This document shows, in pieces, positions 46-64,000 of a DNA stretch of 64,000 bases (the stretch's first letter is position 1; each line of letters begins with the position of its first letter). The stretch covers positions 87,980,001 through 88,044,000 of the forward strand of contig NC_086108.1 of assembly GCF_963921235.1 (NCBI RefSeq). The letters run 5' to 3'. The notes beneath the pieces were generated by a model. That model was not told the DNA's origin. It did not search any database and saw nothing but the letters and a program-made list of their open reading frames with translations. Origin of the DNA: Mobula hypostoma (lineage: Eukaryota). Both the position numbers and the translations under genes were made by a program.

Positions 46-569
46 CAGTCAGTGAAGTCAGTGGGTGCTATCCCAAATCCGGGGTTGGCGGCTATACACC
101 TCCATCTTCTTCAATCTTGCGACAGCACCGAGTGCAGCCTCTCCTCCAGTTTGTTCTCGTTGGCTGCCTTGGCACTGCCCACCGCCGCCCCCGCCGAACT
201 CGAGCCCGAGGCCGTGTCGGCCTCCAGCCGCGGCCGCTTCTTCGAGCTCGGCCCTTCCTTAGGCGGAGGCCTTGGGCAGGTGAAGGCACACGGTGCAGCA
301 CCCAAGTTCATCATGTCTCTTCTAACTAGGTGCATAGCATACGATTCATAGATACGTGGTGAGGCTTTAATCTCTTCCACGGAAGATGGCCGTTGGCTCA
401 CAAGGAGCACATCCGCCCTTTGTCAGGTCTTGTTTTTTAGTCCTGCTTGGGTGTCCTCACACCCTCCTCACCAGACTAAGTCCAGTGGGGGAACCGGCCA
501 AGTCACTGACCACTCGACCACAGCCCCTGGCCAAGCGCCGGACGCCCACCTCCTGCCAAATCTCTCTGA
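46..569 (-). mobile_element. Short non-autonomous RTE-derived element with an internal captured GC-rich coding fragment
   Basis: Near-perfect 10-bp TSD (acatcatggt 36-45, acgtcatggt 570-579). The 3' end reads QD*RRWRCIAANP followed by a CTGA-repeat tail. The 5' part is homologous to 60210-60345. Confidence 0.65.
123..278 (-). pseudogene. Captured fragment resembling the CYHR1/ZFTRAF1 N-terminal coding region
   Basis: PPPKEGPSSKKRPRLE...ANENKLEERLHSVL resembles the CYHR1 KLEERLYSVLCC motif, recalled from memory. The segment is strongly GC/CpG-rich relative to its flanks. Confidence 0.55.
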
Positions 570-8369: not shown

Positions 8370-9543
8370 CAGGGGTCCCCAACCTTTTTCGTACTGCGGA
8401 CCGGTTTCATATTGACAATATTCTTGCGGACCGGCTGACCCGGGGCGGGGGGAAGGGGTTGCCAACGAACAAGAGTAGCAGTCAGATACGTTGGGTTTAC
8501 ACTGAGAAAGACTACAATGACCATGAAGCCTTGTGCGGGTACCAGTGCGCATGCGTGTACGTGCTGATTTTTCCCTACAAATCGGTTTTGGCGATTCTGT
8601 TCGGGGGGCGGGGGTGGTGTTAATCACGGCCAGAATATCGGTAATGAGTGGCTAATACACTCAATTTCGTTTCTGAAAGGGTTTATCTAACGAATTTAAT
8701 ATTAAACACATAGTGCATATTTTCCTCGCATGAATATAGTGATAAGTCAATTATCAGGGGAGCTTGAAGGAAGTGTTGAACAAACTTCCAGTAGAAGTGG
8801 TAGAGGCAGGTTTGATATTATCATTTAAACAAAAATTGGATAGACATATGGGCAGGAAAGGAATGGAGGGTTATGGGCTGAGTGCAGGTCGGTGGGACAA
8901 GGTGAGAGTAGCTTTCAGCACGGACTAGAAGGGCCGAGATGGCCTGTTTCCGTGCTGTAATTGTTATATGATTATATAAGTCAATAGCATCATAACATTT
9001 TAAGTAACGTTTGGATATTAAACACACCGCACATATTTTCCCCGTATGAACATATAAAATCATTTCAACACACCAATATCGCTGAATCAGTGGGAGCCCT
9101 GGGCTTGTTTCCCTGCGACAACATGGTCCTATCGAGGGGTGTTGGGAGACAGCGATACTCGAACGGGGTTCCTTATGTCCAGTCTATTCCGCAATGTAGT
9201 TTTCGTTGCATTCATTGCAGAGATATGTTGGAAATGGAAGCAACGTTTTCAGTGCTTTCGTGGCTATCTCAGGATATTTAGCCTTGACTTTGATCCAGAA
9301 TACCGGCAGAGATGTTATGTCAAACATACTTTTCAACCCGCCATCATTTGCAAGCTCGAGGAGTTGATCTCCCTCCCGCACTGACAAAGATAACGCATGC
9401 GTAACGACGTCGCGTGCGTTCAAGCTCAACAGTGGGCATGACAGGGAATGAGGAAAGGTGCAGCAGACTCATATCGCCAAATCATATCGTTTTCTCGCGG
9501 CCCGGTAGCGCATGCTTTGCGGCCCGGTGGTTGGGGACCGCGG
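8370..9543 (-). mobile_element. hAT (Charlie-like) DNA transposon, internally deleted
   Basis: TIRs caggggtccccaacc and ggttggggaccgcgg, 8-bp TSD cgctaggg/ctctaggg, and a transposase C-terminal remnant LPVFWIKVKAKYPEIATKALKTLLPFPTYLC. Confidence 0.88.
8752..8975 (+). mobile_element. CR1 3' fragment nested inside the hAT element
   Basis: CR1 3'UTR motif ggcctgtttccgtgctgta, flanked by a repeated ataagtcaat. Confidence 0.65.
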
Positions 9544-14058: not shown

Positions 14059-15499
14059 CTGGGACAAAGGGAAATATATGGATCAGTTTCATTATATTAA
14101 CAGTGAAGGAAGCTTTTCTTAAGAAGCCATTTCTAGATTCCACAATCTTGGACAGTCGCCCAGAATAAAGGGTGACCTTTGGGTTAGGGTTGCTGACTTG
14201 TGGGCATGCTATGTTTGCGTTGGAAGCATGGCAACACTTCTGAGCTATCTAGCACAGTTCTTGCTGGTTTGATTTGATGCAAACAACACATTGCACTGGA
14301 AAATTTGATGTACATGTGACAAATAAAGATAATCATATTTTCTTTTTCTTCATTTACCACAATTCTGAACTGTTTCTACAACCTACAGGCTCATTTCAAA
14401 GGACTCGTTACTAGTTTTATTATTTATTAACTAGTACTCATGATTATTTTTTTAATTGCACAGTTTGTCTTCTTTCACATATTGGTTGATAATCTTTGTT
14501 TATGTATAGTTTTTCATAAATTCTATTGTATTTCTTTATTTTCCTGTAAATGCCTGCAAGGCGTGGTAGTATACAGTAGCATATATGTTATTTGATAATA
14601 AATTTTACTTTGACTTTCCTTCCTGAGCTGTTTACTGTTTACCTAAGCTGTGAACTACATGCATTTTAAATTATGTTTATTAATTTATTTGTGGTAATAT
14701 TTTGTTTTAGGTTCTGAGTGTTTTATACGTTTTGCAGTTGCACCATGGTCCAGAGGAACATTGTTTTGTTTGGTTATGTACAGGTACAGTCAGATGATGA
14801 TAAACCTGAATTTGAACTTGAACTTGAGTTCCTCCAGTAGATTGTTTGTTGCTTATGTCGTCTCTTGTGTCTCCTTTGCAGAAACAGTGTTGGTTTTATT
14901 TTTTTCAGAGCCTTGAATGCCTACCTTGGACAGTCCGGGTCTCAGAAGGTACACAGGAGAGCAGCAATTAAATGTGTCGCCGGTTCAGAGTTAAGGCAAC
15001 TTGTGCGAAGTGTGCAACTGGAGGTGGGGATGTGAGCTGGGCGATCTCCTCATTATATCTTTTAAAACAACACCCAAACCACCTGAAGAGGGCCAACTGG
15101 TTTTGTGTAATAGTTTGCACATCATTAATCTATAACCTTTAGATTTCATAGAGAGGTATAGATGTTGTAAGTGTGATAAACAAATTAGATGAGTGCAGGT
15201 TGAAGACACTGTCTTATTGAAATGGAATTACAAAGACTTTAGGGGAAAGAAATACTTAACTTAGGCATGCAAAATCAATAGGAAGCACTGGGGAGTACAG
15301 AATTGTGAAACTTGTTGGAATCAGTTGTCCTTTTTTATACTTTTTATAAGATATTAATTGAATTAATGCAAGACTAAAATCATAGTTTTAATCGTATCAG
15401 TAAAAAGAAACCATAATTTGTATCATTAACAAACTCAAGTATTTTTCACAGTATGTGGTGTTCGTCCCCACTTACTGGCTGAAGCTGGTACAGCAGTTA

Positions 15500-16228
15500 C
15501 AACACACATAAAAGTTGCTGGTGAATGCAGCAGACCAGGCAGCATCTCTAGGAAGAGGTACAGTCGACGTTTTGGGCCTAGACCCTTCGTCAGGACTAAC
15601 TGAAAGAAGAGATAGTAAGAGATTTGAGAGGGAGAGGGGGAGGGGGATATCCAAAATGATAGGAGAAGACAGGAGGGGGAGGGATGGAGCCAAGAGCTGG
15701 ACAGGTGATTGGCAAAAGGGATATGAGAGGATCATGGGACAGGAGGCCTAGGGAGAAAGAAAGAGGAGGGGGGGGGAAACCACAGGATGGACAAGGGGTA
15801 TAGTGAGGGGGACAAAGGGAGAAAAAGGAGAATGAGAGAAAGAATGTGTGTATAAAAATAAGTAACAGATGGGGTACGAGGGGGAGGTGGGGCATTAGCG
15901 GAAGTTTGAGAAGTCAATGTTCATGCCATCAGGTTGGAGGCTACCCAGACGGAATATAAGGTGTTGTTCCTCCAACCTGAGTGTGGCTTCATCTTTACAG
16001 TAGAAGAGGCCATGGATAGACATATCAGAATGGGAACTGGACGTGGAATTAAAATGTGTGGTCACTGGGAGATCCTGCTTTCTCTGGTGGACAGAGCATA
16101 GGTGTTCAGCGAAACGATCTCCCAGTCTGCATCGGGTCTCGCCAATATATAGAAGGCCACATCGGGAGCACCCAGACGCAGTATATCACCCCAGTCGACT
16201 CACAGGTGAAATGTCGCCTCACCTGGAA
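15500..16228 (-). mobile_element. Penelope-like element 3' part (GIY-YIG remnant and terminal repeat)
   Basis: Same family as 17253-18154; the hammerhead GAAA is mutated to AAAA. Confidence 0.8.
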
Positions 16229-17196
16229 GGACTGCCAGTTTCATTTTTTAATTGGCTAAATGTTAGCACATTATACATGAGTTATAATTGTTTTAATTAT
16301 CTCACCTTTTGATTGGAGTCTGTTATCTAAGGGATTTTCTGTTATCTCAAATATATAGGTGATAGATTTTTCAAAGGTGCCACATTCTTTATATTGAATC
16401 AATGGAATCTCTTTAATCTCTGCTTTGCTTCTCAGCTCCTCACTTAGTTTCAAATGCTATGATCCTTTGTTTAAACTTTAAAATAAATGATTATGAAAAT
16501 CAAAGTTTCTCACTCATTCCTGAACTCCTAAAAGAACCCAGAGATTGAAAATTTTCGAGATCCATCAAATGCAAAAGAGAATTAAGTGAATTGATTAAGG
16601 GTTGAGGTACTGTTAATATTCTGGAGGCAATAAAGAGGGAACTACACAGAAATGCAAGATATAGTAGTAGTCCCAAGGGCAACTGCTTTTTGGAGGATAA
16701 AGCTGGAACAGAGATTAGTATGGAAGTTTGATGAAGAGTGGCCCTGCAATAAAGGAGTTAATGAAACCAAGTAGCTTCAAATGGAACCAAGGTGGTGGTG
16801 GACTGTGTTAGTAGTGCCAGGTGTTGTATGGTTGGAAAGACATACAAAGCAATACTGTGGCCAGCAAATGGAATTTGGACCAGCACAATGCTGTAGTGAC
16901 TGCTTGGCATCATAAATATAGGCAGAATCTTTTGTTGAGAATACCATCTCCCCGTCTTTGGAGTTTATAAAGCGCTGTATGACTGCAAGTGTCTGATTAG
17001 CTTTATTGGTCACATGCACATTGAAACAAACAGTGAAAGGTGTTGTTTGTGTCAAATCAGATCAGCCAGGATTGTACGGAGCAATCCACGAGTGTCACAA
17101 TGTCAGCATAGTATGCCCACAACTCACTATCCCTAACCCAACACTCACAACACGCTGGAGGAACTCAGCAGGTCAGGCAGCATCCGTGGAAAAGAA

Positions 17197-17234
17197 CAGT
17201 CAACGTTTCGGGCTGGAACCCTTCGTCAGGACTG
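17197..17234 (-). ncRNA. Minimal hammerhead ribozyme (host Penelope element)
   Basis: cagtc-CTGACGA-a-gggt-tcca-gccc-GAAA-c-GTT-gactg. Confidence 0.7.
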
Positions 17235-17312
17235 CAGAGGCCCTATAAAGAAACACACATCAAAGTTGCTGGTGAACGCAGCAGGCCAGGCAGCATCTCC
17301 AGGAAGAGGTAC

Positions 17313-17348
17313 AATCAACGTTTCAGGCCGAGACCCTTCGTCAGGACT
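17313..17348 (-). ncRNA. Minimal hammerhead ribozyme
   Basis: agtc-CTGACGA-agggtctcggcct-GAAA-c-GTT-gatt. Confidence 0.65.
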
Positions 17349-18021
17349 AACTGAAGGAAGAGTGAGTAAGGGATTTGAAAGTGGGAGGGGGAGGGGGAGA
17401 TCCAAAATGATAGGAGAAGACAGGAGGGGGAGGGATGGAGCCAAGAGCTGGACAGGTGATTGGCAAAGGGGATATGAGAGGATCATGGGACAGGAGGTCC
17501 GGGGAGAAGGACAAGTGGGGGGGGAGAACCCAGAGGATGGGCAAGGGGTATAGTCAGAGGGACAGAGGGAGAAAGAGAGAGAGAGAAAGAATGTGTGTAT
17601 ATAAATAAATAACGGATGAGGTACGAGGGGGAGGTGGGGCATTAGCGGAAGTTAGAGAAGTCGATGTTCATGCCATCAGGTTGGAGGGTACCCAGACGGA
17701 ATATAAGGTGTTGTTGGAGGAACATCTAATGCCCCACCTCCCCCTCGTACCTCATCCGTTATTTATTTATATACACACATTCTTTCTCTCACTCTCCTTT
17801 TTCTCCCTCTGTCCCTCTGACTATACCCCTTGCCCATCCTCTGGGTTTCCCCCCCTTGTCTTTCTCCCCGGACCTCCTGTCCCATGATCCTCTCATATCC
17901 CTCTTGCCAATCACCTGTCCAGCTCTTAGCTCCATCCCTCCCCCTCCTGTCTTCTCCTATCATTTTGGATCTCCCCCTCCCCCTCCCACTTTCAAGTCCC
18001 TTACTCACTCTTCCTTCATTT

Positions 18022-18057
18022 AGTCCTGACGAAGGGTCTCAGCCTGAAACGTCGACT
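18022..18057 (+). ncRNA. Minimal hammerhead ribozyme
   Basis: agtc-CTGACGA-agggtctcagcct-GAAA-c-GTC-gact; predicted cleavage after C18053. Confidence 0.72.
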
Positions 18058-18988
18058 GTACCTCTTCCTAGAGATGCTGCCTGGCCTGCTGCGTTCACCA
18101 GCAACTTCGATGTGTGTTGCTTGAATTTCCAGCATCTGTAGAATTCCTGTTGTTGGCCCTATAAAGAAGGTGAGTGGAGGGTGGGAAGGAGAAGGCTGGT
18201 AGGTGCCAGGCGAAAAACCAGTAAGGGGAAAGATAAAGGGGTGGGGGAGGGGAAGCAGGGAGGGGATAGGCAGGAAAACAATGGGTAGTGGAAGGAGGCG
18301 GAACCATGAGGGAGGTGATAGGCAGCCGGGGGAGGGGGCAGAGTGAGACTGGGATGGGGGAAGGGACGGGAAGGGAATTACCGGAAGTTGGAGAATTCAA
18401 TGTTCATACCAAGGGGCTGGAGACTACCCAGACGGTACTCCGATCTTACAGCTGGCACTGTAATAGTGTTACTCTACTACTGTGCCCCGCAGATACCTGT
18501 CAGCATCTTGTCTGATGCCAGTAAACCTGCTTCAACTCCTTTTACTGCTTGGGCTATCAATGGAGCTCTGACAGAGCCATATGCAAATCATCTTCTGAGG
18601 AATAAGGCATAATGTACATGCTACCAAATTCTTTTGCCAGATCCAGACCTTCTGCCTTTAGCCCCCCCCACCCCCGCCCACCAAGTTACTTTCTGCTTTC
18701 ACATTTGCCTCTGTCTACTACAGGTTTTACTCTGCACTGTGAAGTGTGTGGATCATCCTAAGATCATGAAGGATGGCAGCAGAGTTAAATTTTCATTTCA
18801 CTTAAAAGGCATTGTATATGAACCTGAAGCACACTTAACTCCTTTTCAACTGCGTGTCTGTTTGCTGGAAATGGGAGAAAGTTTACAAGAGCAGAGTCAT
18901 TTCAGGACTACGTTAATTACTTGTGGTGTAGACAGGTGTGGTGCATATCCTACTATGTATCTATGGTAACTAATCCTCCCTCACTTAC

Positions 18989-22869: not shown

Positions 22870-23029
22870 CTGAAGAATAGGGAGTTACAGCTGATACTGT
22901 TTCTGACCAGACACTCCAGAAGCCATCAAATGAAATACCATCGGGTTTGGTGCGCAGGCGAACCATGTACCTAATTCCAGCCTTCAGGTCCCGAAGATCA
23001 TGATACTCCTTGAAACTGACAGTCACACT
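22870..23029 (-). CDS. MPL: MPL exon 5 (SVTVSFKEYHDLRDLKAGIRYMVRLRTKPDGISFDGFWSVWSETVSAVTPYSS)
   Basis: ttcag| acceptor and |gtgatt donor, 160 bp. PDGIS..G.WSVWS motif. Confidence 0.92.
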
Positions 23030-41334: not shown

Positions 41335-42026
41335 ATCTGTGAAGAGCAAAATGCTGTACTATTTTATGGAAAGGCAAATTGAGCGTAATTCTCTCAAGTA
41401 TTCTTGGTGTTACTTGGAATTCTGAAGTGTCTGTCCCTTTAAAAAGTAAGTATGGAGTTGATGCTTATCAGCAACTAGGCTAAGATAAAGTGCTGGTGGA
41501 AAAGGCCCCACAGCTCAACAACTGGAGGAAGGAAGCCATTAGGAAGCAGACCATGAATCTCCTAATTTGAACTGCAACTTGGTGTTGACAATTCATCTTG
41601 AAGGAGAGGGGAGGAACTTAATCACCCATTACAATTCTCTCCAGTTCTTACTTCTTATTCTGTCCTTTAACATTGTGCATCAGTTATTTCTAATTACAAT
41701 CCATAGATTACTTCTTGATGAGATTATACATGCACCTCCCTTTTTGTTAACTGTAAGTAGAAATAACTTTATGGTAACAATATTAGTTGCCTTTACATGG
41801 ATGGGAAACTAGAACAAATTAGCAGCCAAGATGAGAGATAGAAAATGCCAAGCGATGATCAGCATATAGAAACATAGAAAACTTACAGCACAATACAGGC
41901 CCTTCGGCCCACAAAGCTGTGACGAACACGTCCCTACCTTAGAAATTACTAGGCTTACCTATAGCCCCACACATAAAAGTTGCTGGTGAACACAGCAGGC
42001 CAGGCAGCATCTCTAGGAAGAGGTGC

Positions 42027-42062
42027 AGTCGACGTTTCAGGCCAAGACCCTTCGTCAGGACT
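42027..42062 (-). ncRNA. Minimal hammerhead ribozyme
   Basis: agtc-CTGACGA-agggtcttggcct-GAAA-c-GTC-gact. Confidence 0.7.
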
Positions 42063-42756
42063 AACTGAAGGAAGAGTGAGTAAGGGATTTGAAAGTTGGA
42101 GGGGGAGGGGGAGATCCAAAATGATAGGAGAAGACAGGAGGGGGAGGGATGGAGCCAAGAGCTGGACAGGTGATAGGCAAAAGGGATACGCGAGGATCAT
42201 GGGACAGGAGGTCCAGGAAGAAAGACGGGGGGTGGGGGACCCAGAGGATGGGCAAGGGGTATATTCAGAGGGACAGAGGGAGAAAAAGGAGAGTGAGAGA
42301 AAGAATGTGTGTATAAAAATAAGTAACAGATGGGGTACGAGGGGGAGGTGGGGCATTAGTGGAAGTTAGAGAAGTCGATGTTCATGCCATCAGGTTGGAG
42401 GGTACCCAGACGGGATATAAGGTGTTGTTCCTCCAACCTAAGAGTGGCTTCATCTTTAATGCCCCACCTCCCCCTCGTACCCCATCTGTTACTTATTTTT
42501 ATACACACATTCTTTCTCTCACTCTCCTTTTTCTCCCTCTGTCCCTCTGAATATACCCCTTGCCCATCTTCTGGGTCCCCCACCCCCACCTTGTCTTTCT
42601 TCCCGGACCTCCTGTCCCATGATCCTCTCATATCCCTTTTGCCAATCACCTGTCCAGCTCTTGGCTCCATCCCTCCCCCTCCTGTCTTCTCCTATCATTT
42701 TGGATCTCCCCCTCCCCCTCCAACTTTCAAATCCCTTACTCACTCTTCCTTCAGTT

Positions 42757-42792
42757 AGTCCTGACGAAGGGTCTCGGTCTGAAATGTCGACT
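42757..42792 (+). ncRNA. Minimal hammerhead ribozyme (variant)
   Basis: agtc-CTGACGA-agggtctcggtct-GAAA-t-GTC-gact. Confidence 0.6.
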
Positions 42793-45700
42793 GCACCTCT
42801 TCCTAGAGATGCTGCCTGGCCTGCTGCGTTCACCAGCAACTTTTATGTGTGTTGCTTGAATTTCCAGCATTTGCAGAATTCCTGTTGTTTACCTATAGCC
42901 CTCTATTTTTCTAAGCTCCATGTAGCCATCCAGGAGTCTCTTAAAAGACCCTATTGTTTCTGCCTCCACCACCACCGCTGGCAGCCCATTCCACTCACTC
43001 ACCACTCTTTGCGTAAAAAACTTACCCCTGACATCGCCTCTGTACCTACTTCTAAGCACCTTAAAACTGTGCTCTCTCATGCTAGCCATTTCAACCCTGG
43101 GGAAAAGCCTCTGACTATCCATGTGATCAATGCCTCTCATTATCTTGTACACCTCTATCAAGTCACCTCTCATCCTCCATCGCTCCAAGGAGAAAAGGCT
43201 GAGTTCACTCAACCGATTCTCATAAGGCATGCTCCCCAATCCAGGCAACATCCTTGTAAATCTCCTCTGCACCTTTTCCATGGTTTCCACATCCTTCCTG
43301 TAGTGAGGTGACCAGAATTGAGCACAGTACTCCAAGTGGGGTCTGACCAGGGTCCTATATAGCTGCAACATTACCTCTCAGCTCTTAAACTCAATCCCAT
43401 GATTGATGAAGACCAATGCACTGTACGCCTTCTTAACCACAGAGTCAACCTACGTAGCAGCTATGAGTGTCCTATAGGCTTGGACCCCAAGATCCCTCTT
43501 ATCCTCCACGCTGCCAAGAGTCTTACCATTAATACTATATTCTGCCATCATATTTGACCTAGCAAAATGAACCACCTCACTTTTCTCTGGATTGAACTCC
43601 ATCTGCCACTTCTCAGCCCCATTTTGCATCCTATCAACGTCCTGCTGTAACCTCTGACAGCTCTCCATACTATCCACAACACCTCCAACCTTTGTGTCAT
43701 CAGCAAATTTACTAACTCATCTCTCCACTTCCTCATCCAGGTCATTTATAAAATTCACAAAGGGTAGGGGCTCCAGAACAGATCCCTGAGGCACACCACT
43801 GGTCACCGGCCTCCATGCAGAATATGACCCGTCCACAGCCACTCTTTGCCTTCTGTGGGCAAGCCAGTTCTGGATCCACAAGGCAATGTCCCTTGGATCC
43901 CATACCTTCTTACTTTCTCAATCAGCCTTGCATGGGGTACCTTACCAAATGCCTTGCTAAAATCCATATTCACATATTCACTTCATCTACGGCTCTACCT
44001 TCATCTACAGCTCTACCTTCATCAATGTGCTTAGTCACATCCTCAAAAAACTCAATCAGGCTGGTAAGGCATGACCTGCCTTTGACAAAGCCATGCTGAC
44101 TACTCCTAATCATATTATGCCTCTCCAAATGTTCATAAATCCTGCCTCTCAGGATCTTCTCCATCAACTTACCAACCACTGACTAGCCTATAATTTCCTG
44201 GGCTATCCCTACTCACTTTCTTGAATAAGGCACCAACATCCACAACCCTCCAATCCTCTGGAACCTCTCCCGTCCTCATTGAGGATGCAAAGATCACTGC
44301 CAGAGGCTTAGCAATCTCCTCCCTCACTTCCCACAGTAGCCTGGGGTACATCCTGTCTGGTCCCGGTGACTTATCCAACTTGATGCTTTCCAAAAGCTCC
44401 AGCACATCCTCTTTCTTAATATCTACATTCTCAAGCTTTTCAGTCCACTGCAAGTCATCCCTACAATCGCCAAGATCCTATTCTGTAATGAATACTGAAG
44501 TATTCAGTAAGTTCCTCTGCAATTTCCTCGGTTCCATATACACTTTTCCATTGTCACACTTGATTGGTCCTATTCTCTCACCTCTTATCCTCTTGCTCTT
44601 CACATACTTGTAGAATGCCTTGGGTTTTCCTTAATCGTGTCCGCCAAGGCCTTCTCATGGCCCCTTCGGGCTCTCCTAACTTCATTCTTAAGCTCCTTAT
44701 AATCTTCTAGATTCATATCATTACCTAGTTTTTTGAACCTTTCATAAGCTCTTCTTTTCTTTTTGACTAGATTTACAACAGCCTTTGTGCACCATGGATC
44801 TTGTACTCTACCATCCTTTCCATGTCTCATTGGAACATAACTATTCAGAACCCCACACAAATATCCCCTGAACATTTGCCACATTTCTTTGGTATGTTTC
44901 CTTAAGAACATCTATTTCCAATTCATTCTTCCAAGTTTCTGCCTGATAGTCTCATAGTTCCCCTTACTCCAAGTACATGTTTCTGTAACTTGTCTGTTCC
45001 TATCCCTCTCCAATGCTATGATAAAGGAGGTAGAATTGTGATCACTATCTCCAAAATGCTCTCCCACTAAGTGATCCGACACCTGACCAGGTTCATTTCC
45101 CAATACCAGATCAAGTACAGACTCTCCTCTTGTAGGCTTATCTACATATTGTGTAAAGAAACCTTCCTGAACACACCTAACAAACACCACCCCATCTAAA
45201 CCCCTCTCTCTAGGGAGATGCCAATCAATATTTGGGAAATGAAAATCTCCCACCACAACAACCCTGCTATTATTATTCCTTTCCAGAATCCGTCTCCCTA
45301 TCTGCTCCTCGATGTCCCTGTTACTATTGGGTGGTCTACAAAAAGAACCCAGTAGAGTTATTGACCCCTTCCTGTTCCTAACCTCCACCCACAGGGACTC
45401 CGTAGACAACCTCTCCATGACTTCCTCCTTTTCTGCAGCCGTGACACTACCTCTGATGAACAGTGCCATGCCCCCACCTCTTTTAATATAATATACTGAG
45501 AGATCACATTTGTACCAGGGATGAAGGAACACAGTCCATTAGGAGAGATTTGTTTACATTGTGAGATGCATTAATTACTGGTGAAGCCGGCACTGATTGT
45601 CCATTCTAAATACCCTTAAGAAGGTGGTACTAAACTCGAAGTACTGTAGACCTTCTATTGTACTCCCATTGTACAATTGGGAGTGCCTTCAACAGATTTA

Positions 45701-55592: not shown

Positions 55593-56295
55593 CTAATGGG
55601 ATTTTAGATAAAGAGAGATGAAAACTTTAACCAATAACTCCTGAAATTAAAAAAAAAATAATGCTTCTGATTCCCCCCCTGTAAAAGCACAGCAATAAGA
55701 AAACAAATGTTCCTGTTTACAGTGACACACATGGTAACGCACATTTTATGTTATAGAATTCACCAATCAAAACCCCAAAATTTGAGATGTAGGTTAAGAT
55801 TCACCCTCATGAAAAATGTGGAGATAAATAAGCATGTTTTTTTTTGCAATGTGTGTTTCTTGAAGCATGCACAGATGATACAATTTCATGTGTCAGAAAA
55901 TTACAGTACGGAATATTTTCTAGGAATGCAGCCTCTGTCCCGAACCATAACGTATGAGTTGCCTGTAGTTAACTTTCAGCTCTTTGTAGATCATGTAAAG
56001 TCAGAAACATTGCGCTTTGATTTGATAAAGAATTTCCTATCGAAAGGTGCTGGAGAAAAGATGGAGCAGCCTAATTCAACAGAGTTTGAGTTTACTGGAA
56101 GTAAAGGAGAATTAAACCTCACAAGTAGTAATAAAATGTTTTGTCAAAATGTAAATTTCCCCCAAAATGAGGAAATGCCACTAGAAACAATGCACACCAT
56201 TATGCGCAGCTGATTGTTATGAATTCTACATAATTATGATTGAATAGCTAGGCAGTATTTAGCCTCTCCCTGGATCTTCCCCTGCATATAAAAGA

Positions 56296-60157: not shown

Positions 60158-60632
60158 AGGTCACTCGTCTGAGTGCTACTGGTACCATGTAACCCAGTAC
60201 TACCTGTCACATGGTCGGGTGGTCGGCGACTAAACTGGCTCCCCCACCGGGCTTGCCTGGTGAGGAGGGTGGCTAGACACCCTGCCGGATGAAAAACAAG
60301 ACCTGCAAAGGGCGGATGAACCCTCTCGTATGGCCAACGGCCATCTAGCAAACACGTGGCGTGAAGCGCGGAAAGGGCATCCCTTGCATCGAAGCTTGGT
60401 CTGGCCATTCACTGCAACAGAACTTCCCCCAGCTGTCTTGGACCTCATCATGCCGCTGGATCCGGGAGGGGATGTCGAGAGGGTGAGTCTGGACCTGTGC
60501 AACCCCCTACTCACCTAAAATCCATTCATGCACACACTGTTCCTTTCTGAGGAGTGGGGTATCCTCAAACCCCACTAACTGACTGAAAGGAACCATCATC
60601 ATCCCATGGGATGGATAGCCAGAGAGAGAGAG
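60158..60632 (+). mobile_element. Short RTE-derived element inserted in a CR1 remnant
   Basis: TSD atatcc (60152-60157 and 60633-60638), (ga)n tail, and a 5' part homologous to the element at 46-569. Confidence 0.65.
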
Positions 60633-61324: not shown

Positions 61325-64000
61325 TGTGGATGCATTGTAAGTGTGAAATCGTACTTTGATGTCTAGCACATAAAATATTGAGCCCCACGTTAGGCCAGCC
61401 AGACTTTTCTACTGGAAGTGCCTCAATATGATGCCTACAGTATCTCGTTTTGTCAAATAAACAGGCTGCTTCAAAGCTATCAGTACTTTTCTCTGGAGAC
61501 TTTATTCATGCAACAAAATTTGGTGTCACAACCCATCGTGTGGCCTGCAATCTTAGCAGTTTAAGTGGGTGAGTATTTTTAAAATGAACACTCAAACTTG
61601 TCTGTTCAGGTTGGCGGTACATGGGAATGCGAGGTTTCATGAACACAGACAGCTGAAATGGTAGATATCAAAGCAGTGCGTGCACATGCATGTGCTTTTA
61701 TGTAAGAGACAAAACTTTGCGTGTAAATTGGTGAGACAGAGCCACCAGTTGCAGAGGATGATTATTGGGGCGTGTACACTCATTGCGAGGGCTGCATTTT
61801 AGCATACACATTTTGCAAGTGTGTGTGCCCCTGGTGCAACAGTTGGAAGCAAGGAATTACAGCAGGCATCATGAGTTCAGGCGTACAAAAGTGGCAGATT
61901 ACAGAATACCTACTCTGCGGTTCTAAGTATGTACTGTTTAACTGGTTCATTTATATTTTGCCTAGTGTGGGAATTAGCGTGGAGACACTTCAGGGAGAGG
62001 ATTTACTCAGATATATCTGTCACGATGGCACCTACTGAGTTCAGGCAACGTCAGGTCGGGGATCCTGATGATCCGAGCCAGCCACTGATGCCGATTAGGA
62101 CTATTCATAAGCCCTTCACCCCCGGGGAGAAATAGAGCATTTGTCAGAGTTGCCCTCACTTAAAGTTGCATGTGGGAGTTCGGAATTCTGGCCCAAGCTC
62201 GAGGAAATGGTTGAAATTCACCAGATGCACCCTAAAGATATAAATGTGTTGATAAAAGCAAAGTGCCCGAGGAATATGTGGGACAGGATGGCCCAAGGGG
62301 TGCGGGATGGTACACAGGCAACTACTGGGAACACCAGCAATGAAGAAAGATATCTCTCTCTTAAAGGGGAAGTGAGGCAGGGACTTAGTGGGGGCGGGGG
62401 GAGAGCAACTGGGGAACGATAATAGCAGTGATTCAAAGAGCTGATGAGATAGCTATGGATTATCCAGAATGTAAATATCGGGCATATGAGGAGTATTGAG
62501 GGTTAGGTAATCCAGGGAGGGACATCCCAGTCTTCCTGAAAATGCCAAAGGAAGGCTTGAGCTCAGCCCACTAGGAAGTTTTGGATTTAGGGATAGCAGT
62601 GGGTTTGACCTACTCTGTGATAGTTTCATGGGCCAGTGAGATAGAACAAAGGAAGTGCAAGAGAAATAGTAAAGTGGCTATAGAAGATGCTGTTGCTGTG
62701 ATGTCACAGAGGGTTTGCTTTGTGTGCCAGCAGCCGGGGCATGTAGCAAGGAATTGCTGGAATAAACGTGGGAGGATAAAGGAGCTGATATGCTATAGCT
62801 GTGGCCTATCGGGGCATGGTTGGAGGCAGTGTCCAAAAACAAGGAAAGAAAAACCCCATCGGTGCCCAGTCTGATCAATCTGACTACTGATCAGATCACG
62901 GAGCAGGTGAAGATGACTTCTTGGTCAGAAAAAGATGTGACAGTGGCCCCCACTACCAGCGCTGATGAACCGTGGATGTACACAACAGCATTGTTAGGGG
63001 GCCGGTAATGCGATATGTTAGTTGACATTGGCATTGGTACCGATAACTGACCTACCCTACCCAATAACTGGACGGGCTATTTATATTAAGGATGTAGGAG
63101 GAATAACGGTGAAAGCAGAAATAAGCCAATCGTAGATACTTGAAATTGGTGGGGTGCAGCTTCCAGTGTATTTCTGGGTCTATCCAAATAATGAGGGTAC
63201 TGTCCTTGAACTAACATACTAAAGGAAGCAGGGGCCATTATAGAATCTGAAAAGGGAGAAACAATATGGACAAGTCAGGGGCAGCAAATATGTACAACCG
63301 ACAGAGGACACAACATAGCCAGCGTAGCTGCACTGACAGCTGTTCACAAGTCAGTAACGATAGATACGGATGCTGGAATGAATCCCACAAGCTCCATCCT
63401 AACAGGGGGGGGAGGCACACGAGTGCCAGATGGAAGTAGAGCAGGAGGAAGATATCGGTGTGAAGGAAGCACTTCTGAAAGGGGAAGCAGAGGAATTTTT
63501 TATAGACGGGTCTCGGAGGTACATAGACAGGAAGCCATGGACTTGAAGGGCTGTGGTGAAGGAAACAGATGAAGAATTAGCTTTAGGAGCACTGCCAGAA
63601 GGTTGCTCAGCTCAGGTAGTGGAACTGGGATGAACAATGTGATTACCTTTTGGGGCAATTCTGGGTCGTAGTGAGTCCGGACTTATAGAACATAGAACAT
63701 AGAATAGTACAGCACAGTACAGGCCCTTTGGCCTCAATGTTGTGCCGACCCTCAAACCCTGCCTCCCATATCAGTCCTCACCTTAAATTCCTCCATATAC
63801 CTGTCTAGTAGTCTCTTAAACTTCACTAGTGTATCTGCCTCCACCACTGACTCAGGCAGTGCATTATAGGGACAGAATGACACAGTATGTGAAACAACTT
63901 TGTAACCAACGTAAAATGTTAAAGGACCGAGTAAAACAATAGCAGCACATTGCCGATCAGAGAGAGCCAGAGGGAAGGGAGATAGTCCTCCCACAGATGA
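61325..64000 (+). mobile_element. Defective endogenous retrovirus (LTR, PBS, gag, pro, RNase H and integrase C-terminal remnants), continuing past the window end
   Basis: LTR with AATAAA ending caaca at 61515 (start uncertain), PBS-like TGG at 61521, two CCHC knuckles (CFVCQQPGHVARNC, CYSCGLSGHGWRQC), protease MLVDIG and DVGG, RNase H FFIDGS...LPEGCSAQVVEL. Confidence 0.82.
63689..63863 (-). mobile_element. CR1 3' fragment inserted in the ERV
   Basis: (ttctatg)n tail on the minus strand, NALPESVVEADTLVKFKRLLDRYM, flanked by a repeated ttatag. Confidence 0.75.

Follow-up and report, generated by a model that had tools for sequence, protein, structure and literature searches.

In the 64,000-nucleotide stretch of DNA that we analyzed (the window), a 524-bp unit on the minus strand, running from position 569 to 46, was found to be one copy of a high-copy short repeat with a rearranged piece of the first exon of the host gene ZFTRAF1 (CYHR1) in its interior. 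We interpret the unit as a 5′-truncated, worn copy of a likely RTE-derived, non-autonomous family, the permuted ZFTRAF1 interior of which was likely copied from an RNA circle that had been nicked once. Taken as a whole, this interpretation is tentative, and we would place it close to, and slightly below, an even chance.

The interior of the unit (122–299) differs from its surroundings in composition, with a GC content of 69% and a CpG observed/expected ratio of 0.81, compared with 40% and 0.30 in the flank. This agrees with the GC- and CpG-rich open block that had been described in the original prediction, the quoted peptide of which lies inside the open frame 422–114. By blastx, the larger part of the insert (piece A; 260–122, minus strand) matched the sawfish ZFTRAF1 protein P0121 with 71% identity over 49 amino acids (E = 5e-17), the best match among 130 ZFTRAF1 proteins, and covers approximately residues 64/65–112 of that protein together with the first base of codon 113. 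Over the interval 272–123, the identity to sawfish residues 60–112 was 70%. The sawfish, skates, catshark and chimaera ranked first among the 130 proteins; with rays at the top, followed by shark and chimaera, a donor from outside the chondrichthyans was rejected. The earlier attribution of the block to CYHR1 is thereby confirmed for its main part, but the first six residues of the quoted peptide (278–261) are not ZFTRAF1 in that frame. A further candidate, that the block is part of the normal RTE ORF, was rejected, as the block is ZFTRAF1. The basic motif of the host protein, KKRAR, reads KKRPR in the window copy.

The original prediction had envisaged a single captured block of ~155 bp, which is correct as far as piece A is concerned but overlooked a second piece, located upstream at 299 to ~262 and in another frame. 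Six-frame translation revealed this second peptide, CCTVCLHLPKAS, at 300–265, where 11 of 12 residues agree with sawfish residues 113–124. Its score was 63, against 36 for the next best of the 127,924 12-mers of the window, and a chance match was rejected on that basis. Piece B (261–299, minus strand) thus encodes ZFTRAF1 residues 113–124, possibly to 126, which form the start of the RING-like domain (Pfam Sina_RING begins at residue 114 of P0121). No further ZFTRAF1 pieces beyond A and B were detected in positions 1–700 of the window. Direct searches with the insert-bearing fragment came up empty: none of 470 candidates reached E ≤ 1 in a protein search with 335–114, no usable match came from the ESM Atlas, and phmmer with the read-through frame gave 0 matches at E ≤ 0.001 against 1.84 billion representatives. 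These are false negatives due to the shortness of the fragment, and the matches of both pieces show, at the level of sequence comparison, that the insert derives from ZFTRAF1.

How are the two pieces arranged relative to the host gene? The insert is 178 nt long (299–122) and has the order B then A, whereas the order in the host gene is A then B. Its first nucleotide is the second base of codon 113, a cysteine codon, and its last nucleotide is the first base of the same codon, with neither a gap nor an overlap; the codon is cut once inside, and both junctions between the insert and the element fall within it. Because the upstream stretch 299–265 encodes the residues that follow piece A in the real gene, the insert is circularly permuted, and the codon layout shows it to be an exact permutation of a ZFTRAF1 exon-1 piece.

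As a natural-order control, we used a locus (L001) that was found in metagenome contigs with a degenerate pattern for piece B alone and that was the only locus returned. L001 (591–878) is exon 1 of a teleost ZFTRAF1 gene, that is, host DNA in a metagenome; its peptide matched 136 proteins at E ≤ 1, and the gene-named ones among the 120 listed were all ZFTRAF1/CYHR1. In this exon, 804–834 (equivalent to window 152–122) stands directly before 833–868 (equivalent to window 301–266), with A and B abutting at 834/835, and piece B agrees with it at 32 of 36 nucleotides. Furthermore, the anchor KLE.RL.SVL was present in 104 of the 120 ZFTRAF1 proteins listed, and the piece-B residues came directly next in all 104.

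The same control locates the internal junction (258–264, minus strand), at which, by the codon layout and the L001 alignment, the downstream end of exon 1 is joined to the middle of exon 1. The L001 frame ends in VYQ, followed by the GT of the exon-1 donor. Measured against this exon, which is from a teleost, piece B ends ~4–9 nt short of the donor, and it reaches ~260 when aligned to the end of L001 exon 1. The AG at 259–258 is shared and can be assigned to either side of the junction. Again by comparison with the teleost exon, the observed sequence is 2 nt too short for a clean join of donor to AG.

The unit is bounded by a target-site duplication (36–45 on the left and 570–579 on the right) in which 9 of 10 bases are identical, a match with a chance of ~4e-5 at one fixed register, and the near-perfect 10-bp direct repeats predicted around a 524-bp unit were thus borne out. 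An empty site in a relative, which the original prediction had suggested looking for, was also present. One contig of organism B joins position 35 to 570, with 27 letters on its shorter side, and omits 534 bases, equal to the unit plus one copy of the repeat, with a single copy of the duplication kept. At the 3′ end, a short, imperfect (GACT)n microsatellite tail (46–56, minus strand) is preceded by a probable LINE 3′ end, corresponding to the last ~22 codons of an RTE-type ORF (57–121, minus strand). The minus-strand frame 422–114 is open up to a stop at 113–111, after which come a DRxxWR-type motif and the tail; this stop is premature and belongs to the window copy, since the family majority letter at 113 abolishes it. 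Upstream of the insert, 300–383 (minus strand), with in-frame ATGs at 335, 314 and 311, is the likely end of a LINE 5′ UTR with a putative RTE ORF start and belongs to the family by depth. It is preceded by a structured 5′ module (384–520, minus strand) and the 5′ end of the window copy (521–569, minus strand). The module is 78–79% identical to 60346–60212, the sole clear second match of positions 1–700 by BLASTN within the 64-kb window, as had been noticed for ~60210–60345. The 5′ module folds better than shuffled sequences (z = −2.6), the insert does so modestly (z = −2.5), and the 3′ end does no better (z = −0.05).

The window copy is 5′-truncated, as other copies extend upstream past 566 (loose ends in 11 contigs each of runs X6 and X5, with a median length of ~105 letters behind 566 and an agreement of 0.72–0.74). 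The drop in depth over 511–570 was not counted as a family-wide 5′ truncation, because alignments also break where the window copy has diverged, as in the loose ends at 499. With a length of 524 bp, a longest frame of ~100 codons and no Pfam family, the unit is without a reverse transcriptase ORF.

The terminal motif, the tail and the duplication point to RTE-type ends, which we regard as very probable; the 3′ end had been called RTE-type in the original prediction, and this stands on the DRxxWR motif near the stop and the (GACT)n tail, with no match to a parent element. The LINE-derived ends had no match in Pfam, PDB or the representative protein library, and the 5′ module had no motif match in the parts of the Kojima 2018 supplement consulted (PMC5786205). 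In the same supplement, the BovB 3′ end encodes DRxxWR ~15 codons before a stop that falls within the tail, and a related DR motif is present in RTE1_LA; in a comparison by eye, the spacing between motif and stop is similar in the window unit and in BovB. The ends might instead come from a non-RTE LINE clade, or a small-RNA head further upstream might make the family a SINE, and the missing parent match and the unseen true 5′ end of the truncated window copy leave room for this. We nevertheless consider it quite improbable: the DRxxWR motif near the stop is combined with a microsatellite tail and a 10-bp duplication, and only four clades, RTE among them, are reported to give rise to bipartite elements that lack an ORF (PMC5786205, in part). 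The second short element at 60.2 kb also has the 5′ module and the type of tail in common with the unit, around a different middle. Moreover, neither a tRNA head (ARAGORN) nor an Rfam head (four chance-level matches, all under gathering scores) was found in positions 1–800/1000 of the window, which contain only the truncated copy.

The unit was matched in sequencing runs of eight coded organisms and in a skin metagenome. The family counts refer to four runs from three organisms, including X1 (organism A), X6 (organism C) and X5 (organism B); the rows of organisms D–H and of the skin metagenome, with shares of 0.04–0.36, were left out. The number of contigs aligned to the unit was 2217 in X1, 2373 in X6 and 1991 in X5. 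Relative to the flank at 601–690, the median summed depth over the insert was 3119, 1797 and 1258 times, respectively, a ratio that is not a copy number, and the depth over the 5′ part was close to it (3849, 1700 and 1964 times). Run X13, which is only guessed to be RNA, gave 145 contigs and has no bearing on transcription. Several contigs span the internal junction without gaps, and the permuted form is consequently the form of the family. These results indicate that this is a high-copy family in three organisms, on a scale of thousands, with the insert as an integral part. The multicopy family foreseen in the original prediction is thus established by an insert depth of ~1,000–3,000 times the flank in three organisms, and a one-off chimera was rejected given ~2,000 contigs per run in X1, X5 and X6.

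Beyond the tail, loose ends before position 56 carry the same repeat and then diverge in 53 (X1), 60 (X6) and 65 (X5) contigs. Because they diverge after the tail, the family occupies many insertion sites; the duplication, the empty site and these 53–65 contigs with different 3′ flanks per DNA run show that the element was retrotransposed as a unit. In X1, 45 of 48 differing places were transitions, in which subfamily variants and the window copy's own changes are mixed. The majority letters at 134, 160, 176, 181 and 282/283 restore sawfish residues: the identity at the end of piece A rises to 20/22 (from 16/22), and that of piece B to 11/11 (from 10/11). Since the majority letters restore host residues, the founder was a faithful copy of a ray-like gene. 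With the majority letters (40 of 111 difference rows), one unbroken frame of ~93 codons runs on the minus strand from the ATG at 335 to the LINE stop at 57; an in-frame join would occur by chance in 1 of 3 cases. No joint from the true ZFTRAF1 gene was present among the joints listed, and piece B is too short for one to be expected.

The window copy itself lies in a receptor gene. Minus-strand exons in the window best matched the thrombopoietin receptor MPL (E = 3e-14 and 2e-8), with a transmembrane-like exon at ~4470 and a Box1-like exon at 2996–2909 that is followed by a GT donor. This Box1-like exon is the nearest upstream MPL exon, and the element lies in the intron after it. Both the MPL exons and the element are on the minus strand, so the element is in the sense orientation. 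The original placement in the last MPL intron, in sense, is therefore right as to the gene, the intronic location and the orientation, while "last" is plausible, as the terminal exon would lie left of position 1. Exons of MPL with two WSxWS modules were observed at 22918, 14248–13862, 11490, 4470 and 2996–2909 (minus strand).

Organism A is identical to the window over 463–900. The flank of organism C differs at 6 of 357 positions (1.7%), and the insertion is present; that of organism B differs at 27 of 331 (8%), and the site is empty. With an empty site in B and a filled one in C, the window copy was inserted after organism B had diverged. Consequently, the family is older than the split of organism B, and the window copy is younger. 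The copy in the MPL intron is probably a neutral passenger insertion. In organism C, the same insertion has a 33-bp deletion near its 5′ end (507–541).

Could a single reverse transcription event have produced such an interior? Along the element, the order of reverse transcription is tail, A, B and 5′ part. Entry into and exit from the host sequence occur at the same bond of codon 113, which requires a template that had been cut once at that bond. In the mechanism we propose, a circle of ~180 nt would have arisen when the 3′ end of exon 1 was joined to an AG within the same exon. In a single germline event, a LINE reverse transcriptase would have begun at the LINE 3′ end, switched to the 3′ terminus of the linearized exon-1 RNA circle, copied the circle a single time and switched again, to the LINE 5′ part, making two end-to-end jumps in all. 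Because the promoter module (5′) and the recognition end (3′) would both have been retained in the product, a partner LINE would amplify it in trans, and the copy in the MPL intron would be a later insertion, made after organism B had split off and before the split of A and C. The original prediction had the RTE ORF replaced by a host mRNA piece through template switching. The capture of host sequence agrees with this, but a plain two-step switch predicts a colinear piece and is insufficient, because an exact permutation needs a circle or a template that was cut and swapped. The nearness of the donor and the sense orientation favor an RNA origin. On the other hand, three points stand against a circle: no splice acceptor occurs naturally in a first exon, the context implied by the protein sequence is rich in purines and lacks a pyrimidine tract, and the insert size also fits a mononucleosome DNA circle (PMC10581685, in part).

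The permutation might also have arisen with no circle at all, if a linear exon-1 RNA had been cut once at codon 113 and the enzyme had made three jumps, to the upstream fragment, to the downstream fragment, where it ran off at the cut, and to the LINE 5′ part. One cut explains the exact abutment equally well, all landing points are 3′ ends of RNA, one of them the exon-1 end that splicing leaves, and the route agrees with the sense orientation; LINE chimeras are, moreover, accepted to form by template switching and RNA ligation (PMC13174262, in part). This route requires one extra jump and two fragments that remain together, however, and the folding of the insert is only modestly above shuffles, so that we hold it to be possible but doubtful. 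An origin from DNA is unlikely in our estimation. There, a ~180-bp microcircle from the CpG-rich first exon would have been opened and used to repair a break in an RTE copy, taking the place of its interior, and the product would then have been retrotransposed. The 178 bp of the insert are near the ~180-bp peak of germline circular DNA, which often has microhomologies of <5 bp (PMC10581685, in part), and the source is CpG-island-like, with a short AG shared at the junction. Such a patch would leave the end so near to the splice donor unexplained, would require a simultaneous deletion of the LINE interior and would make the orientation a coin toss; in addition, the relevant parts of PMC10581685 concern the formation of circles and not their heritable re-insertion. 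Last, a colinear capture might have been tandemly duplicated inside the element and trimmed on both sides to B–A. Internal deletions do occur in the family, as its joints reveal, but both trims would have to strike the same phosphodiester bond of codon 113, and neither a going-back joint nor a doubled form spanning the insert was present among those listed for the four runs, which makes this route very improbable.

A more far-reaching form of the circle interpretation would see in the family a fossil, multiplied many times, of a first-exon circRNA that was back-spliced to a cryptic AG and taken up whole by an RTE enzyme; a loss of 2 nt would then have made the ~93-codon frame, which would have been kept because its translation aids mobilization. 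We regard this extension as speculative and improbable. If it were true, a small chimeric peptide with the ZFTRAF1 basic motif, or an RNA that can pair with the transcripts of ZFTRAF1, could be produced from at least a thousand loci across several rays.

Most of what is known about the capture of host genes by non-LTR elements comes from SVA subfamilies of ~90 copies that are driven by L1, and pseudogenes derived from circles are rare. In Pack-MULEs, host gene fragments between transposon ends are multiplied by DNA transposons with terminal inverted repeats; the element in the window likewise carries a captured and multiplied host fragment, but it is a retrotransposon with a tail and a target-site duplication. 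What is new here is a permuted capture amplified to family scale, the underlying kinds of event being already known. A coding fragment that was rotated once forms the body of a family that, in at least three related organisms, has about a thousand copies or more, and the family would be a datable, many-copy record of a circle or cut RNA of ~180 nt entering the germline. No prior description of a ZFTRAF1-bearing family was found in the literature searched, a search that did not cover Repbase, Dfam, subscription journals or bioRxiv supplements, and the family may be present in repeat libraries as an unnamed consensus. A motif search of the literature returned 125 papers, of which the 30 listed appear from their titles to be unrelated primer matches. 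The copies will be a source of confusion in the annotation of ZFTRAF1, and presence/absence patterns of them are usable as phylogenetic markers.

The closest relatives in structure are the bipartite non-autonomous RTE LINEs and RTE-mobilized SINEs, such as Bov-A, RTESINE1/2, WALLSI3 and RTE-N2_Lch (Kojima 2018, PMC5786205, in part). Like the bipartite RTE elements, the window element is short, probably joins a LINE 5′ part to a LINE 3′ end, has a microsatellite tail and no reverse transcriptase and reaches a high copy number, but its middle is a permuted host protein-coding sequence, of which there is no case in the parts of Kojima 2018 consulted. The origin of the middle of such short retroposons is described there as enigmatic, and the family provides a concrete host-gene origin for one. 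In the platypus, a chimera of snoRNA and RTE has up to 40,000 copies (cited in PMC5499810, in part). It resembles the window family, as interpreted here, in that host RNA was fused to an RTE tail and amplified; its head is a non-coding RNA and is not permuted, whereas the window family has an internal coding fragment.

Similarly, SVA_F1 carries exon 1 of MAST2 (84 copies) and pt_SVA_D6 carries exon 1 of STK40 (94 copies) (PMC6139936, in part), each a GC-rich host first exon captured and amplified by a non-autonomous non-LTR element. A host exon fixed in an amplified family is thus common to SVA_F1 and the window family, which is about ten times or more as abundant as these two subfamilies. A colinear exon spliced at its donor to an acceptor in the element is absent from the window family: the SVA pieces are colinear, 5′-terminal, splice-joined and L1-driven, whereas the insert described here is permuted and internal, in a likely RTE-type element. 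Pseudogenes derived from circRNAs contain canonical exon–exon back-splice junctions, with 33–42 copies in the largest case, and structured linear RNAs can mimic the circle pattern (Dong et al. 2016, PMC4897178, in part). They share with the window insert gene segments in non-colinear order, which in those pseudogenes is the footprint of a reverse-transcribed circle, but the junction in the window lies inside a single first exon, falls short of a clean splice join by comparison with the teleost exon and is in a mobile family. Germline microDNA is similar in its size of ~180 bp and its short microhomology, with CpG islands cited as hot spots (PMC10581685, in part); for the window insert, on the other hand, a DNA origin with re-insertion is only a candidate.

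Several other features were observed in the window. A second short element (60212–60587, plus strand) shares the 5′ module (79%) but not the middle, and it has a hairpin at the 3′ side (z = −2.1) and a tail of the ACTG type; we found no clear duplication around it, and it is probably another non-autonomous family of the same kind. An open frame at 62575–62871 (plus strand) contains two CCHC zinc-knuckle motifs and resembles, by eye, a gag remnant of an LTR retroelement. A fragment at 9187–9468 (minus strand) similarly resembles the C-terminus of a hAT/Buster-type transposase, with no Pfam match at E = 0.01, and 55671–56210 (plus strand) is a stop-free stretch of 180 codons. Clusters of nested, near-identical repeats with GIY-YIG-like fragments occupy 15400–18400 and 41900–43300 and resemble Penelope elements.
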